Both the position numbers and the translations under genes were made by a program. Positions 34,469 to 64,000 of a DNA stretch of 64,000 nt are shown here, piece after piece. The DNA comes from Escherichia coli. GTDB taxonomy: Bacteria; Pseudomonadota; Gammaproteobacteria; Enterobacterales; Enterobacteriaceae. Every line of letters starts with the position of its first letter. Within the stretch, counting starts at the first letter, position 1. The stretch lies in assembly GCF_030013595.1 (NCBI RefSeq), contig NZ_CP122768.1; one strand, 5' to 3'. The notes under the pieces are model-generated. The model was not told the DNA's origin. It searched no databases and saw nothing but the letters and a program-made list of their open reading frames with translations.

Positions 34469-35953
34469 ATGCGAAAAATAATTACTCATTTCAAAGTTGT
34501 TTTAACGTTACTTCTACCAGTAACCGTATCTGCCCAGCAGATACAGTGGCAATCCTGTATGGCCAGTCAATTCAACCACTGGTTTGGTGAGGAAAAACCG
34601 TCTCCTGACTTACTATGTGGTTATTTGTCTGTTCCATTAAAATATACAGACACAGGCGGAGATGCTTCTTATGAAAAAAAATCACAAGTCAAACTAGCGT
34701 TGACAAAATTGCCGGCAAAAAGCAAGCATAAAGGAAGTATCCTGATAATAAGTGGTGGTCCCGGGTTACCAGGCATAAATCCTTATATTAACTTTGACTG
34801 GCCAGTCACAAATCTTCGTGAGTCATGGGATATTATTGGATTTGATCCTCGAGGCGTCGGACAGTCCACTCCGACAATAAACTGCCGGCAATCAGATACA
34901 GAGACTCAGGAAAACATAACCGAAAAGCAACAAGTATTAAATAAAATTAATGCCTGTATCCATAATACCGGAGCCGAAGTCATTCGCCATATCGGCTCTA
35001 ACGAGGCTGTATACGATATTGATCGTATTAGGCAAGCCTTGGGGGATAAACAACTGACAGCCGTGGCGTATTCGTATGGAACTCAAATTGCAGCCTTATA
35101 TGCAGAACGTTTTCCCTACAACGTAAGATCTATCGTTCTTGATGGAGTCGTCGATATCGATGACCTGGAGGACAACTTCACATGGCAACTCAAACAGGCA
35201 CAGAGTTATCAGGAAACGTTTGATCGCTTTGCATCCTGGTGTGCGCGTACAAAAAGTTGCCCGCTTTCTTCAGACAGAGATAAGGCAATAACTCACTTCC
35301 ATGAGCTATTATCAAAATTACATCACAAACCTTTATTAGACAGTAAGGGAGAAAATATATCTTCAGGTGAACTCATATCATTAACAACAGACCTTCTGCT
35401 ATGGCGTTCATCATGGCCAACCCTTGCAACTGCCATACGCCAGTTCTCTCAGGGGATTGTCAGTAATGAAATTGAAACTGCGCTCAGTGCTCCGATAGCC
35501 TCAGAAGAGTCAAGCGATGCTTCGGGGGTAATCCTCTGTGTAGATCAGGGGGATGAGCAATTAACACCAGAAGAGCGAAAATCCCGAAAAGACGCTCTTG
35601 CGAATGCCTTCCCGGCTATTAACTTTGACAATGGACGTTCCGATTCACCTGATTTTTGTGAATTATGGCCAATACATAGCGACCTGAACAAAACTCGCCT
35701 GAAAAATACTGTTCTGCCCTCTGGTTTACTGTTTGTAGCACACAAATACGACCCAACAACGCCCTGGATTAATGCCCGTAAGATGGCAGAGAAATTTTCC
35801 AGCCCGTTACTAACAATAAATGGTGATGGGCATACATTAGCTCTCACCGGAGTTAATTTATGTGTAGATAAAGCAGTTGTACATCACCTGATCACTCCAC
35901 AAAAAATAGAAAATATATACTGCCCAGGAAATTCTGAAGCAGAAATACAATAA
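34469..35953 (+). CDS. Secreted alpha/beta-hydrolase, S33 (tripeptidyl-aminopeptidase-like) family; prophage cargo
   Basis: 494-aa ORF with N-terminal signal peptide (MRKIITHFKVVLTLLLPVTVSA), nucleophile elbow AYSYGT, AT-rich codon usage. Family call is from motifs only. Confidence 0.6.
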   Translation: MRKIITHFKVVLTLLLPVTVSAQQIQWQSCMASQFNHWFGEEKPSPDLLCGYLSVPLKYTDTGGDASYEKKSQVKLALTKLPAKSKHKGSILIISGGPGLPGINPYINFDWPVTNLRESWDIIGFDPRGVGQSTPTINCRQSDTETQENITEKQQVLNKINACIHNTGAEVIRHIGSNEAVYDIDRIRQALGDKQLTAVAYSYGTQIAALYAERFPYNVRSIVLDGVVDIDDLEDNFTWQLKQAQSYQETFDRFASWCARTKSCPLSSDRDKAITHFHELLSKLHHKPLLDSKGENISSGELISLTTDLLLWRSSWPTLATAIRQFSQGIVSNEIETALSAPIASEESSDASGVILCVDQGDEQLTPEERKSRKDALANAFPAINFDNGRSDSPDFCELWPIHSDLNKTRLKNTVLPSGLLFVAHKYDPTTPWINARKMAEKFSSPLLTINGDGHTLALTGVNLCVDKAVVHHLITPQKIENIYCPGNSEAEIQ

Positions 35954-35975
35954 TTTCAAAATATTCCGCTATTTG

Positions 35976-36020
35976 CTCCCAATGCAAAACATATATTGCA
36001 TTGGGAGCATATTCATATTT
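35976..36020 (+). terminator. Intrinsic terminator after the hydrolase gene
   Basis: Inverted repeat ctcccaatgca / tgcattgggag with 10-nt loop, followed by catattcatattttt. Confidence 0.6.
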
Positions 36021-36136
36021 TTGTTATTCTTGTATGAAATCGTCTCATGTACACGGTCCTTTTTTCGCCGAAAACTGATATTACTTTAATCAAAAGTTGA
36101 CGTGCCAGATTCGAAGTAAATTTATAAAATATCAAA

Positions 36137-36442
36137 TCAATATACATTTTGCACCTTCGAGATAGTAATGGCTGTTACTGTAACATGGGTTACAAACAGC
36201 TTCATACCCAGAGCTACTGATGTATCAACACGATTCAACAATACCCGATATTTATTCCATGCCTCCAGCAACGATCTTTCTTCCTCCGTTGCGATTTCCA
36301 GATCTACAGCATCCTGCAGTGGCGCAATATACTCACTGAATTCCTGGATGTAGAACTGTGTGGTGACGGTCTTCCAGCCATTCGGCTCCTGCTGTATCGA
36401 AGCATACCAGGCTATTTCAATATCGCTATGCTGCGGCAGCAT
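36137..36442 (-). pseudogene. tfaX: Tail fibre assembly protein fragment (Tfa C-terminal region fused to unrelated sequence)
   Basis: 101-aa ORF; residues ...[39 protein letters not shown] match the C-terminal conserved block of the full Tfa at 37222..37806; the rest does not. Confidence 0.6.
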
Positions 36443-36498: not shown

Positions 36499-37167
36499 AT
36501 GGTGAAATTAATGAAAAAAAACACAGATGATGGGGCTAAAATTTACACACCACTTACCCTAAAGCTTTATGACTGGTGGGTTTTGGGAGTATCAAATCGG
36601 CTTGCATGGGGATGTCCTACAAAGGAACACCTTCTTCCACACTTTCTGGAACATTTAGGTAACAACCATCTGGATATTGGTGTTGGAACTGGGTTTTACC
36701 TTACTCACGTACCTGAGAGTAGTCTGATATCTTTAATGGATTTGAACGAAGCTAGCCTGAACGCGGCATCTACAAGGGCTGGGGAATCAAAAATTAAACA
36801 TAAAATTAGCCATGATGTTTTTGAACCTTATCCCGCGGCGTTACATGGTCAATTTGATTCCATTTCCATGTTTTACCTTCTTCACTGCCTGCCTGGAAAT
36901 ATATCTACAAAAAGCTGTGTAATACGCAATGCGGCGCAGGCCTTAACTGACGATGGAACTCTATACGGAGCCACAATTCTTGGCGATGGAGTTGTGCACA
37001 ATAGCTTCGGTCAAAAACTGATGCGCATTTACAATCAGAAAGGCATCTTTTCAAACACAAAAGATTCCGAAGAAGGCTTAACACATATACTCTCAGAGCA
37101 TTTCGAGAATGTTAAAACCAAGGTTCAAGGTACTGTAGTAATGTTTTCCGCTTCAGGGAAAAAATAG
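36499..37167 (+). CDS. ybcY: Class I SAM-dependent methyltransferase (YbcY-like prophage cargo)
   Basis: 222-aa ORF with motif DIGVGTGF (SAM-binding motif I); encoded opposite to the flanking tail-fibre genes; start codon uncertain. Confidence 0.65.
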   Translation: MVKLMKKNTDDGAKIYTPLTLKLYDWWVLGVSNRLAWGCPTKEHLLPHFLEHLGNNHLDIGVGTGFYLTHVPESSLISLMDLNEASLNAASTRAGESKIKHKISHDVFEPYPAALHGQFDSISMFYLLHCLPGNISTKSCVIRNAAQALTDDGTLYGATILGDGVVHNSFGQKLMRIYNQKGIFSNTKDSEEGLTHILSEHFENVKTKVQGTVVMFSASGKK

Positions 37168-37221: not shown

Positions 37222-37806
37222 TTACTCCCTGACAGGGTTCGTAGGCCACTCAATATCAGGTGCAGTTGATGTATCAACACGGTTCAGCAACACCCGATAC
37301 TTTTTCCAGGCTTCCAGCAACGAGGTTTCTCCCTCCGTTGCGATTTCCAGATCTGCAGCATCCTGAAGTGGCGCAATATGCTCACTGGCTACCTGCATCA
37401 GGCTGTTTTTTGTTTCTTCCGCCTCCCGGATCCGGAACAGTTTTTCTGCTTCTGCATCTTTCACCCAGGTTGTGCCGTTCCACTTCTGAAACTCCCCTTC
37501 CGGGGATAACCAGGTGACATTTTCCGGTAATGAGCCGAGTTCAGAAATAAATAACGCGTCGCCGGAAGCCACGTCATAGACGGTTTTACCCCGATGGTCT
37601 TCAACGAGATGCCACGATGCCTCATCACTGTTGAAAACAGCCACAAAGCCAGCCGGAATATCTGGCGGTGCAATATCGGTACTGTTTGCTGGCAGACCTG
37701 TATGAGGCGGAATATATGCGTCACCTTCACCAATAAATTCATTAGTTCCGGCCAGCAGATTATAAATTTTTATGGTCCGTGGTTGTTCACTCATTCTGAA
37801 TGCCAT
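37222..37806 (-). CDS. tfa: Tail fibre assembly protein (lambda Tfa-like)
   Basis: 194-aa [42 protein letters not shown]... with C-terminal conserved block; start overlaps stf stop. Confidence 0.9.
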
Positions 37807-40800
37807 TATGCAAGCCTCACAATATAGTTAAATGCGATGTTTTTGACGGTGTTTTCCGCGTTACCAGCAGCGTTAACGGTGATGGTGTGTCCATGTGAGC
37901 CAATCGCAACCGAGTGCGTATGAGCACCAATACCGACAGTATGTGCGTGTGCACCTGCGCTTGCAGCAGTGCCGGACAGTGAGTGGGTATGTGCGCCAGC
38001 AGATGATGTTGCATAGTTTTGATTATGCACAACAGACAATCTTGTTGATGCACTACCAGCACCGGAGTTAGCACTAGCCGTGTTCACGTTGGCTAGTGAG
38101 TGTGTGTGTGCTCCAGCCGAGTTTGTAGAGCCGCTCACACTGTGTGTATGTGCCCCGGTGTTATTCGTAGATTTAGTGCCGTAATCAAACGACGATGTGG
38201 TTTTCGTACCCAAATCCGTACTTGATGCGCTGGCGCTGTGGGTGTGCGATTTAATGCCGTCCTGTTCCTGAGACAATACGGCACGACCACTGGCGGGCTT
38301 GCCCTTAATCGTCCAGCCACGCATATCAGGGATCACGCCTGACGGATAAGCAACTGCAAGTTTCGGGTATGCAGATTTGTCAAAAGTCTGCCCCTGCATC
38401 AGGGCATAACCAGACGGAACGGTATCTGATGGCCACGGAATTGGTGCGCCAACTGGGTAGCTTTCTGGTGGAAGATTTTTCGAGGTATAAACTTCTGCCC
38501 AGCCTTCCTCAAAACCATAGCCATCTCTTGAGGAACGGTAGAACAGACCTCCATTTCTGTAATGCGCCTTCATCTGCAGGGTCCGGCAACTTCCGACTCC
38601 GGTATAGAAGTTAACCAGAATATAGCTGTCGCCAGAGCGGGTGACATTGTAAGCGCCTGATTCGGCATTCCAGGGAACGCCACCATCCGCATCGGCATAT
38701 GTATCCGTTGCCCTTCTGGCAAAAGCAGCCACATGCGCGGCGGTTAAAGTAATATCTTTTGAACCATCAAACTCAACCCCAGAAACCAGTCTTGGCGTTT
38801 GCAGCTTTGTTGCTGTCAATGCGTTACCGTTCAGACTTGCAGACAGTTTGGTTCCAATAACCAGTTCGCCGGTTGCGTTATCAATAGCAAACGGTCTTAA
38901 TGTATTCCAGCCACCATAAACATCACCTTGATTGGTAAGCAGCAGGTAAGTTTTAGCGCCATCATTACGCCATAATGCCCCATACTCCCCACCTATCATT
39001 CGAATCTGATTACCACCACGCGCTACAATTTCGTCTGTGGCAAAAAGTTTTTTGCACGACAAGTTATCGTTAACGATTAACGAATGGGACTCATAAAAAC
39101 CACGCCCACTCTTAAAATCAAGGATAACGTCCGCCGCGATACATTCAGTCGCTGGAATTGTTGCCCCAAACTTATAGGTCGTATCATTAACAACGAGATC
39201 AGCACCAGGTGCGGATATTGACAGGCCATCTTCGATAAACGCAAAAACAGGGAAAGCAGCGCCATCAACATAGAACACAGAGCGCAAATCATCGCCCTTA
39301 TTACTCATCATTATTGAGTGGATGGCTCGTTCATTGTTTTGATATTGCCAGAACATTCCATAAGCATAACGCCCCCTGTCAGTCCAGCCACCAGGCATAA
39401 CAAATCCGTTAAACTCGCAGTTATTCATCGGATCGCCTGCGGTTCGCGTTGCCGTGGTGATAATGACCCTTGATGCCAGTTCGCTTACTGAGCCAGCAGA
39501 ACGCATAACAACAACAGGGTAATATTTTCCAGATGTTGCACCTGCAGGAGCGTTAACCCGCACATAACGCATACCACGCTTATCAGCAAAGTCTGTTTTA
39601 CTGACCGCGTTAATGTTGTTCAGGAAGCGTCCCTTATCGGGTATATCAGCGCCGTTCTGGTCTTTCTGCAGACGTTTCTCTGCATTGTCATAGGCTGATT
39701 TTACTGACTTTGGCGTTGCCGCCAGCGTTTCAGACGTACTGTTGGTCGCACTGCTGAGCTGTACTATCCCCTTTTTCGTCGTACTTGCATCCTCAAGCGC
39801 CACGGCGGATGCAATATCCTCTGCCCGTTTAGCTGCTGTCTCGGCGCGCGTTGCCGCGGATTCCGCCGTACTTTTGCTCTGTGCTGCCGCTGTCGCACTG
39901 CCAGCAGCCTCTGTCGCCTTCGTGGATGCCGTCGTGGCGCTGCCCTTCGCTGCTGACGCCTGTCTGGTCGCCTCATCTTTTGAAGCAGACGCAGATGATG
40001 CCGATGACGCCGCCGAACTGGCGGACGATGCCGCTGCCGTTTTTGAGGATTCTGCGCTGGTTTCCGACGCTTTCGCGTTCGTTTCGGATGTCTTCGCTGC
40101 GGATGCAGACCTCGCTGCTGCGCTGGCCTGTTCAGCGGCTTCGCCAGCCTTCGTTGTGGCTGTTGAAGCGGACAATGCAGCGCTTTCTGCCGATTTTCCG
40201 GCGGCGGTGGCACTGGCTGAGGCCTGCCCGGCACTTGTTGACGCTGCACTGGCAGACGACGCAGCCGCTGTTTTTGAGCCTGCCGCAGCTGAGGCGCTCT
40301 GTCCCGCTGCCGTTTCAGAAGACCTGGCGTTCGTCTCGGACGTTTTTGCCGCCTTCGCGGAATTTCCTGCCGCCGTTGCCGAGGAAGCTGCACTACTGGC
40401 GCTCGAGGCTGCGCTCGTTTCTGATGATTTTGCAGCCTCTTTTGAGGCCGCCGCATCCCGGGCCGAGGTCGCAGCTTCTGATGCCTTCGTGGTCGCGGTG
40501 GATGCAGATGTGGCTGCTGATTGTTGTGACGCTGAAGCATTCGTTTCTGACGTTTTCGCCGCACCGGCACTGGTGGCCGCCGCGCTTTTTGAGGACTCTG
40601 CAGCGGCAGCACTTTTTGATGCTTCAGTGGCCTTTGTTGATGCCGTTCCTGCGCTGGAAGACGCTGACTGAGCCGACGAAGCGGCCTGTCCGGCTGACGT
40701 GCTGGCTGCGCGTGCTGAGCCTGCAGCATCAGTCGCATGGGTTGCCGCCTCACGGGCAGATGTGCCGGCATCGCCGGCTGACTTCTTCGCGGCTGCCGTG

Positions 40801-41168
40801 TTCTGTGCCACCACGGACGCGTTACGCGCCACCTCTTCCACCATCAGCTCAAAACGGCGCAGTGCCTCCGGACGGGCATCATCCTCCGTCATGGCACCGA
40901 GAAAATCATTCAGCGTACCGGGTCGGGAATCTTCATACACTGTGATAGTCCCGGCATGTGACGGCGGGAATCCTTCCACCAACAGAATAACGCTGTACTG
41001 ACCGTACTCAACGTCCATACTGTAACGCCCGGCTTCATCCGGATTTTCTGAGGCCAGCGTGTTCACCACCACCGTGGTGCTGTTACGTTTTGCTTTCAGC
41101 TGGATTGTGCAGTTCTGTACCGGTTTTCCTGTGCCGTCTTTCAGTACACCTGAAATCTTTACTGCCAT
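37806..41168 (-). CDS. stf: Side tail fibre protein (lambda Stf-like), with long Ala/Ser-rich region and C-terminal HxH repeats
   Basis: ORF 37806..41174; begins (MNM)[31 protein letters not shown]...; about 480 aa of A/S/T-rich low complexity; C-terminus has repeated GAHTHS motifs. Confidence 0.9.
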
Positions 41169-63911: not shown

Positions 63912-64000
63912 TATTCACCTCTCGCAGCCTTGCGCTTATCTTCTTTAATCTTGAAATAAAGGTTTGTCAGGTACGTCAGCAGGCCAAATACCAGGCTACC
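63911..64000 (-). CDS. S: Holin (phage 21 S-type pinholin), C-terminal part only; 5' end outside window
   Basis: Minus-strand frame reads ...[29 protein letters not shown] then TAA, which overlaps the R start codon by one base. Confidence 0.7.

Follow-up and report, generated by a model that had tools for sequence, protein, structure and literature searches.

In this study we analyse a window of 64,000 nucleotides from Escherichia coli (RefSeq assembly GCF_030013595.1, contig NZ_CP122768.1), in which a gene for an alpha/beta hydrolase with an export signal directly follows ompT, the gene of an omptin outer-membrane protease. Within peptidase family S33, the hydrolase joins the known TAP/Hip1 group as a new member, Gram-negative and borne by phages and plasmids. 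Overall, it is best explained as a Sec-exported, disulfide-bonded, soluble serine hydrolase of this group, encoded by the second gene of a mobile omptin cassette, and we consider this explanation probable. The gene is real, expressed, already annotated and unstudied, and it belongs to the accessory genome; the conserved omptin-hydrolase cassette is apparently undescribed before.

The hydrolase as a member of the TAP/Hip1 group

The gene encodes a precursor of 494 residues (Z1930, ECs_1662, WP_001226370.1; Table 1), and an identical (100%) locus is present in E. coli 2012EL-2448, where RefSeq labels the product 'alpha/beta hydrolase' (WP_001226370.1). Two Pfam domains are found in it, PF00561 (Abhydrolase_1, 8e-32, residues 91-460) and PF08386 (Abhydrolase_4/TAP-like, 6e-14, residues 386-479). 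Among solved structures, the best match by sequence is Hip1 of Mycobacterium tuberculosis (E=5e-51, residues 21-475). An AlphaFold2 model calculated from 69 relatives has a mean predicted local distance difference test score of 91.5 and a predicted template modelling score of 0.91, and its top Foldseek matches are all alpha/beta hydrolases, with the Hip1 structures first (template modelling score, TM, 0.74-0.81), TnmK1/TnmK2 next and the prolyl aminopeptidases far behind. The putative catalytic residues Ser202, Asp428 and His455 are invariant in an alignment of 19 sequences that reaches from E. coli to Mycobacterium and Nocardia, and they align with those of Hip1, for which the triad S228/D463/H490 and five predicted disulfides are reported (PMC4022732). 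In addition, ten cysteines (residues 30, 50, 139, 163, 258, 264, 357, 397, 465 and 485) are invariant or nearly so among the relatives. Because the Pfam domains, the Hip1 match, the model and the conservation of triad and cysteines agree, the first-pass annotation of this DNA, which had called a secreted S33-type alpha/beta hydrolase with an SYGT elbow, proves correct on this point. That annotation had reckoned with a non-hydrolase family or missing catalytic residues, and neither is found. Judged from sequence and model, the hydrolase is thus a member of the TAP/Hip1 group whose triad appears intact.

The N-terminus reads MRKIITHFKVVLTLLLPVTVSA before QQ, with an n-region charge of +3, an h-region of mean hydropathy 2.5 and a VSA cleavage motif, and a scan of the mature chain finds no further hydrophobic segment. 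A lipoprotein is rejected, as a lipobox is lacking and the additional Cys of the F-type signal peptide fails to match L-[ASTVI]-[GAS]-C. In the PHROGs database the hydrolase corresponds to phrog_20134, of function unknown, whose profile begins only at residue 31 (residues 1-30 are window positions 34469-34558); the start given in many phage annotations is therefore probably Met31, which leaves out the signal peptide and may conceal that the protein is exported. In the mechanism that we propose, signal peptidase I would cut after residue 22 and leave a mature protein of 52 kDa (pI 5.5), predicted to be periplasmic, in which five disulfides would form in the periplasm. Ser202, activated by His455 and Asp428, would then attack a peptide or ester carbonyl under a helical lid (residues ~230-410), and the most likely substrates would be peptides or exposed protein termini, as for Hip1.

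Hip1 (Rv2224c, CaeA; PDB 5ugq, 7sfm) is homologous to the hydrolase over the full length, with 26-28% identity in the Foldseek alignment. Both have the helical-lid fold (TM 0.77-0.81 for the top Hip1 matches), the Ser-Asp-His triad, the Y-S-Y-G-T elbow and the D-P-x-T-P motif; nine of the ten cysteines have an aligned counterpart, and the remaining one is invariant across the family. Both are also exported to the cell envelope, the hydrolase by its predicted signal peptide. Hip1 cleaves Ala-Pro-Ala-p-nitroanilide, Gly-Pro-Leu-p-nitroanilide, azocasein and GroEL2 (PMC4022732), and it differs in being mycobacterial, associated with the cell envelope and provided with a known substrate, GroEL2 (PMC4022732). 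The hydrolase, on the other side, has a plain signal peptidase I signal, behaves as a soluble protein of low relative molecular mass (Mr) and is borne by phages and plasmids beside an omptin gene. The tripeptidyl peptidases (TPP) of Streptomyces lividans, namely Tap/TPP A, SlpD/TPP B and SlpE/TPP C (MEROPS S33.002 group), have PF08386 and PF00561 in common with the hydrolase, to which they are likened through these domains without direct alignment. SlpD and SlpE are lipoproteins. These enzymes are secreted or envelope serine peptidases, TPP B and C being mycelium-associated proteases (PMC4022732), and in a classification of S33 the tripeptidyl peptidases (S33.002) and Hip1 share one of three clusters (PMC11878206). 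For prolyl aminopeptidase (S33.001; TIGR01249; PDB 1qtr), the alignment with the hydrolase takes in the alpha/beta hydrolase core and nucleophile region, however over ~95 residues only, with TM 0.35-0.56 and a chain ~180 residues shorter. This enzyme is cytoplasmic and without the disulfides. As an identity for the hydrolase it is rejected, since the equivalog model TIGR01249 gives 35.8 bits against a curated cut-off of 259.75.

Both the hydrolase and the omptin gene are under purifying selection. The ratio of nonsynonymous to synonymous substitution rates (dN/dS) is 0.13-0.14 for the hydrolase in five cassette comparisons (dS 0.16-1.1), and 0.06-0.20 for the neighbouring omptin. In enterohaemorrhagic E. 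coli (EHEC) 86-24, the hydrolase has been detected by mass spectrometry (PMC3210124 Tables S2 and S7). After size-exclusion chromatography it appears in all 11 low-Mr replicates and in none of the 11 high-Mr ones (Kruskal-Wallis p = 1.3e-6), and it is assigned as 'PP or Ex', meaning periplasmic or extracellular, while OmpT (Z1931) exceeds it in every sample, ~2- to 40-fold (PMC3210124). A pseudogene or chance open reading frame is excluded by the dN/dS values and the proteomics. At entry into stationary phase, a microarray time course of strain Sakai shows both transcripts falling more than 4-fold, with -2.53 log2 for ECs1662 and -2.72 log2 for ompT, both in expression cluster 1 (PMC2241611); this shared membership is weak evidence of co-regulation because the cluster is large and growth-related. 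An open reading frame flanking cdt is merely said to resemble ECs1662 in sequence (PMC4606577).

The omptin-hydrolase cassette and its distribution

The hydrolase gene starts 186 bp after ompT on the same strand, and comparison by blastn delimits a cassette of 2.83 kb around the two genes. The limits are identical against two ColV-like plasmids (L004 and L012, 92% identity), and the left limit lies at 33216 in prophage Sp8 of strain Sakai. Among relatives of at least 75% identity, an omptin gene stands directly upstream in 8 of 8 contexts, including prophages, phages, the F plasmid and ColV-like plasmids. In the F plasmid (NC_002483.1), ompP (32322-33269) is followed by an 'alpha/beta hydrolase' (33374-34861), and the full ompP-hydrolase unit is found on 156 PLSDB plasmids. 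This F-plasmid product (WP_072145210.1) is 76% identical to the hydrolase of the window, with equal signal-peptide architecture, triad and cysteines; it likewise lies directly after the omptin gene with a similar intergenic hairpin between, and is uncharacterised too. It differs in that it is plasmid-borne, its partner is OmpP (71% identical to OmpT) and its start has a good Shine-Dalgarno sequence, and the gap between omptin and hydrolase is 104 bp in the F type (92 bp if counted to the upstream start of L006) against 186 bp here. In ColV-like plasmids, an omptin 90-93% identical to OmpT precedes a hydrolase 95% identical to that of the window; ArlC, with 74% identity to OmpT (PMC10088187), is farther away than this omptin. 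The ColV-like cassette (L012 3176-6485; L004 8001-14822) is flanked on one side by the colicin V immunity gene cvi (or IS91) and on the other by IS3-iroN of the salmochelin iro cluster. More diverged hydrolases follow an omptin of 315 residues in plasmid-like contexts rich in insertion sequences (IS), namely P0003 at L007 (79%), P0002 at L014 (82%), P0005 at L024 (77%) and P0006 at L006 (76%).

Over seven cassettes, the pairwise identities of omptin and hydrolase are correlated with r = 0.92 (21 pairs, which are non-independent). All seven diverged cassettes retain a signal peptide with (T/A)VSA before the cleavage site and Q or R after it, the triad motifs and the ten cysteines of the mature chain. 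From this pairing across diverged cassettes it follows that the pair is older than the split of OmpT and OmpP and has moved as a unit. Complete units of 2.8 kb at >=99% identity are present in 11 sequenced temperate phages, for example Turner, 2G7b, ev243, PhiR49_1 and PhiR26_1. The cassette is cargo of lambdoid prophages at argU (as in the window), of the lambda-like Sp8 of Sakai, and of F-type and ColV-like plasmids. Six more distant relatives, 48-54% identical, come from Salmonella, a plasmid of Serratia, S. entomophila, Budvicia, Pantoea and a metagenomic contig. Those from Salmonella, Serratia and Pantoea (L009, L013, L017, L022 and L023) are located amid IS, Tn3/resolvase, plasmid toxin-antitoxin, fimbrial or protease genes. 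On the whole, the entire Gram-negative branch of the hydrolase family looks like mobile cargo.

In complete E. coli genomes, the hydrolase gene is present in 1249 of 5426 (23%), and in 1225 of these at least 80% of the query is covered. A query of ompT together with the hydrolase is covered at >=80% in 1220 genomes, or ~39% of the 3107 with any ompT match, and the two genes are contiguous in 1220 of the 1225 genomes with the full gene. The survey therefore reveals a conserved, co-diverging two-gene cassette, a stronger linkage than the first-pass annotation had supposed. The possibility raised there that this is a common, already characterised core gene holds in part, for the gene is common and annotated, yet it is accessory and our literature search found no functional characterisation of it. 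The carriers include O157:H7 Sakai and EDL933, O26:H11, O111:H8, as well as APEC (avian pathogenic E. coli) O78. In Sakai (L003 5590-11332), the pair is located at the end of Sp8, beside IS629, the ypjA pseudogene and minCDE, and not beside envY-ybcH-nfrA; an ISEc8 is inserted there 266 bp past the hydrolase stop. A contig scan with the hydrolase protein gave only three short contigs (L019, L020 and L021), 99-100% identical to it, in metagenome-assembled genomes named Collinsella sp., Lachnospiraceae bacterium and Haemophilus parainfluenzae. In all likelihood they are DNA of E. coli or phage put into the wrong bin, and are uninformative on other species.

Three arrangements of the ompT locus can be distinguished. 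The window has ompT, the hydrolase, a tail-fibre-assembly (tfa) remnant and a methyltransferase. In K-12 (blastn against L002), similarity breaks off at 34332, shortly after the ompT hairpin, and begins again at 36213, with appY at the position of the hydrolase, so the first-pass remark that this is not the K-12 arrangement holds. In the type of uropathogenic E. coli (UPEC; L005), similarity extends to 34439 and resumes at 36413, so that the hydrolase and the tfa remnant (34440-36412) are absent; since 107 nt at the beginning of the region upstream of the hydrolase are kept there, this arrangement looks like a deletion of that in the window. The K-12 and UPEC states both look derived. At the UPEC-type locus (L005 5343-7185), there is no envY upstream of ompT and no hydrolase downstream, and the UPEC-type context of ompT has been linked to low ompT expression (PMC6854850). 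The same report, by Desloges et al. in 2019, describes three ompT contexts and gives the name ymcE to the gene that one isolate has '186 bp downstream of ompT' (PMC6854850); given that the spacing is identical to ours, this 'ymcE' is probably the hydrolase misnamed. A genome-wide association study tying ompP to cattle does not mention the neighbouring gene (PMC10088187).

Prophage setting and features of the window

The features of the locus are collected in Table 1. ARAGORN finds no tRNA gene in the 64,000-nt window, so that both the integrase end and the intact tRNA have to be sought beyond position 64000, and the copy of the 3' end of argU without a tRNA gene places the cassette inside the prophage, at its end. 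This agrees with the first-pass placement at a prophage terminus, as do the tail-fibre genes from ~37.2 kb onwards. The cassette lies between these genes and the attachment site. The hydrolase gene has a G+C content of 0.424, with 0.352 at third codon positions (GC3), while the phage structural region has 0.55-0.60; its GC3 of 0.35 also lies below that of tfa and stf (0.46-0.48), in line with the AT-rich codon usage noted at first pass. Its terminator folds with -24.3 kcal/mol (z = -6.1), and 0 of 200 shuffled sequences fold equally well. With a position between the attachment-site copy and the tail-fibre genes, deviant GC3, a terminator of its own and presence in sequenced phages, the gene has the marks of prophage cargo (a moron). 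Residues D83, D85, D210 and H212 of mature OmpT, which we take to be its catalytic positions, are present in the window protein.

The methyltransferase has a K-12 counterpart, ybcY, that is a pseudogene, and it gives a very weak PADLOC match to mad2 (E=0.0033). The tail fibre contains long Ala/Ser-rich repeats and His-rich repeats of the GAHTHS type, which give spurious open reading frames of 300-360 residues in other frames (39742-40945), with a local G+C content of 0.615 and an AT skew of -0.278.

Table 1. Features of the ompT-hydrolase locus, in window positions
Feature	Positions	Strand	Remarks
nfrA	27988-30981	+	upstream neighbour
ybcH	30982-31872	+	upstream neighbour
envY	32055-32816	+	upstream neighbour
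Copy of the 3' end of argU (tRNA-Arg), 50 bp	32860..32909	.	attachment-site repeat; 98% match to tRNA-Arg region of L005
Omptin-hydrolase cassette, 2.83 kb	33211..36037	+	ompT upstream region, ompT, hairpin, hydrolase, terminator; limits by blastn
ompT, omptin outer-membrane protease, 317 residues	33329..34282	+	open reading frame; RefSeq annotation of the 100% identical locus
GC-rich hairpin, then AAUUUGUUUA	34302..34330	+	probable, possibly leaky, ompT terminator; -18.5 kcal/mol, z = -3.3
Segment swapped in K-12	34333..36212	+	1.9 kb with hydrolase and terminator, against a 1.5-kb appY segment in K-12; blastn break points
Hydrolase gene	34469..35953	+	ATG start
Sec (signal peptidase I) signal peptide	34469..34534	+	residues 1-22; predicted cleavage between VSA and QQ
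Nucleophile Ser202 codon	35072..35074	+	A-Y-S-Y-G-T elbow (SYGT 202-205); invariant in alignment A1, nearly in alignment A2; aligns with Hip1 Ser228
Triad acid Asp428 codon	35750..35752	+	DPTTP; invariant in A1 and A2; aligns with Hip1 HDPATP motif, Asp463
Triad base His455 codon	35831..35833	+	GDGHT; invariant in A1, nearly in A2; aligns with Hip1 GTQHT motif, His490
Hydrolase intrinsic terminator	35974..36009	+	perfect 14-bp stem, 8-nt loop, T-rich tail
Tail-fibre-assembly (tfa) remnant	36137-36442	-	downstream neighbour
Class I S-adenosylmethionine methyltransferase, intact	36499-37167	+	between tfa remnant and full tfa
tfa, full	37222-37806	-	downstream
Tail fibre, 1122 residues	37806-41174	-	lambdoid tail/head genes beyond

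Enzyme activity, functional pairing and meaning

Several points weigh against our reading of the protein as a TAP/Hip1 peptidase. An NCBIfam search gives no family that names the hydrolase, and the literature search yielded no report of its enzymatic activity. Further, Hip1 itself was first described as a carboxylesterase, it hydrolyses p-nitrophenyl butyrate (PMC4022732) and is deposited as 'Carboxylesterase A', and the family also holds non-peptidases. One could thus suppose that the hydrolase, in the periplasm or secreted, is a carboxylesterase, lipase or lactonase whose substrate is something other than a peptide, for example a lipid, an acylated component of the envelope or an ester of a small molecule, the more so as an alpha/beta hydrolase triad alone does not set the substrate and RAST-type labels in phage records read 'putative lactone hydrolase'. 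These labels are however automatic, without a test behind them, the C-terminal Pfam domain is TAP-like, and the characterised close members named in the literature consulted (Streptomyces TPP A/B/C and Hip1) are all peptidases, so we regard an esterase as unlikely. The next-best structural matches, TnmK1/TnmK2 (TM 0.75-0.81, sequence E=3e-18), whose PDB titles refer to the enediyne natural product tiancimycin, also count against the peptidase and would suggest a non-hydrolytic enzyme of alpha/beta fold. With Hip1 far closer in sequence (E=5e-51), a complete and conserved Ser-Asp-His triad, export of the protein and no biosynthetic genes nearby, such an enzyme is hardly to be expected here. A role in phage defence or superinfection exclusion, as a component of prophage or plasmid cargo, appears very improbable as well. 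PADLOC model PDLC01094 ('C3a206, TAP-like protein') does match the hydrolase at 3e-55, and the gene occupies a typical prophage cargo slot beside tail-fibre genes; yet the name and description of the model state no defence mechanism, no defence-like gene is found elsewhere in the cassette or among the neighbours, and an exported, disulfide-bonded enzyme would be unusually located for this task.

A further question is whether the hydrolase and the omptin act together. We infer that the hydrolase would be periplasmic, a peptidase rather than an esterase, and may cooperate with OmpT, for example by trimming fragments of peptides that reach the periplasm. The cleavage by OmpT takes place at the outer surface, so any cooperation would have to be sequential across compartments; and as OmpT works without the hydrolase in K-12, the coupling, if real, would be accessory. 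That the two genes are neighbours by co-inheritance only, act independently and have no functional meaning as a pair is nearly as probable as the contrary. A conserved hairpin with a moderately U-rich tail separates the genes, being kept in F-type and L007-type cassettes, where the quality of the U-tract varies, and in K-12. It was missed by a simple terminator scan because of a bulge, and in the F type it lies ~60 nt before the hydrolase start (~50 nt with the upstream start of L006). In addition, ~60% of ompT-positive genomes, among them K-12 and UPEC-type loci, have ompT without the hydrolase, showing that OmpT does not require the coupling; none of the six relatives at ~50% identity has an omptin neighbour, though these are also on mobile DNA; OmpT and the hydrolase are predicted to be in different compartments; and co-divergence can come from plain co-inheritance of adjacent genes. 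On the opposite side, a close-relative hydrolase is almost never found without an omptin (8 of 8 contexts and 1220 of 1225 genomes). Neither ~25-30% amino-acid divergence nor transfers between phage, F-type, ColV-like and other IS-flanked plasmid contexts have broken up the pair, and purifying selection acts on both genes. Moreover, a promoter scan between the two genes finds no consensus-like sigma-70 site, only weak candidates by hand inspection. Part of the hydrolase expression may therefore come from read-through of a leaky ompT/ompP terminator, which would fit its lower protein level compared with OmpT. The first-pass idea of an envelope-proteolysis module thus stands as regards linkage, the cassette being conserved, and is not yet supported as regards function, in view of the separate predicted compartments, the hairpin and the many ompT genomes without the hydrolase.

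The boldest form of the pairing, which we put forward tentatively and hold to be doubtful, is a coupled two-compartment cassette for destroying peptides, with lambdoid phages, F-type plasmids and ColV-like plasmids as the vehicles of its spread. At the surface, cationic host-defence peptides or colicins would be cut by the omptin; what crosses the outer membrane, whether fragments or intact peptides, would be degraded in the periplasm by the Hip1-like peptidase. If this is true, EHEC would have in its homologue of a virulence protease of tuberculosis an aid to peptide resistance and gut colonisation; if the two enzymes are functionally unrelated, the finding shrinks to routine annotation of prophage cargo. 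Research treats OmpT, OmpP and their relatives as factors that degrade antimicrobial peptides in EHEC, UPEC, APEC and livestock-adapted E. coli, and in protein production they are known as a nuisance. For research on omptins, our analysis supplies a concrete second gene, which accompanies the omptin on all the close replicons surveyed, the F plasmid of the laboratory among them. As a real and expressed member of the TAP/Hip1 group, the hydrolase also offers a tractable Gram-negative model for these poorly understood enzymes.

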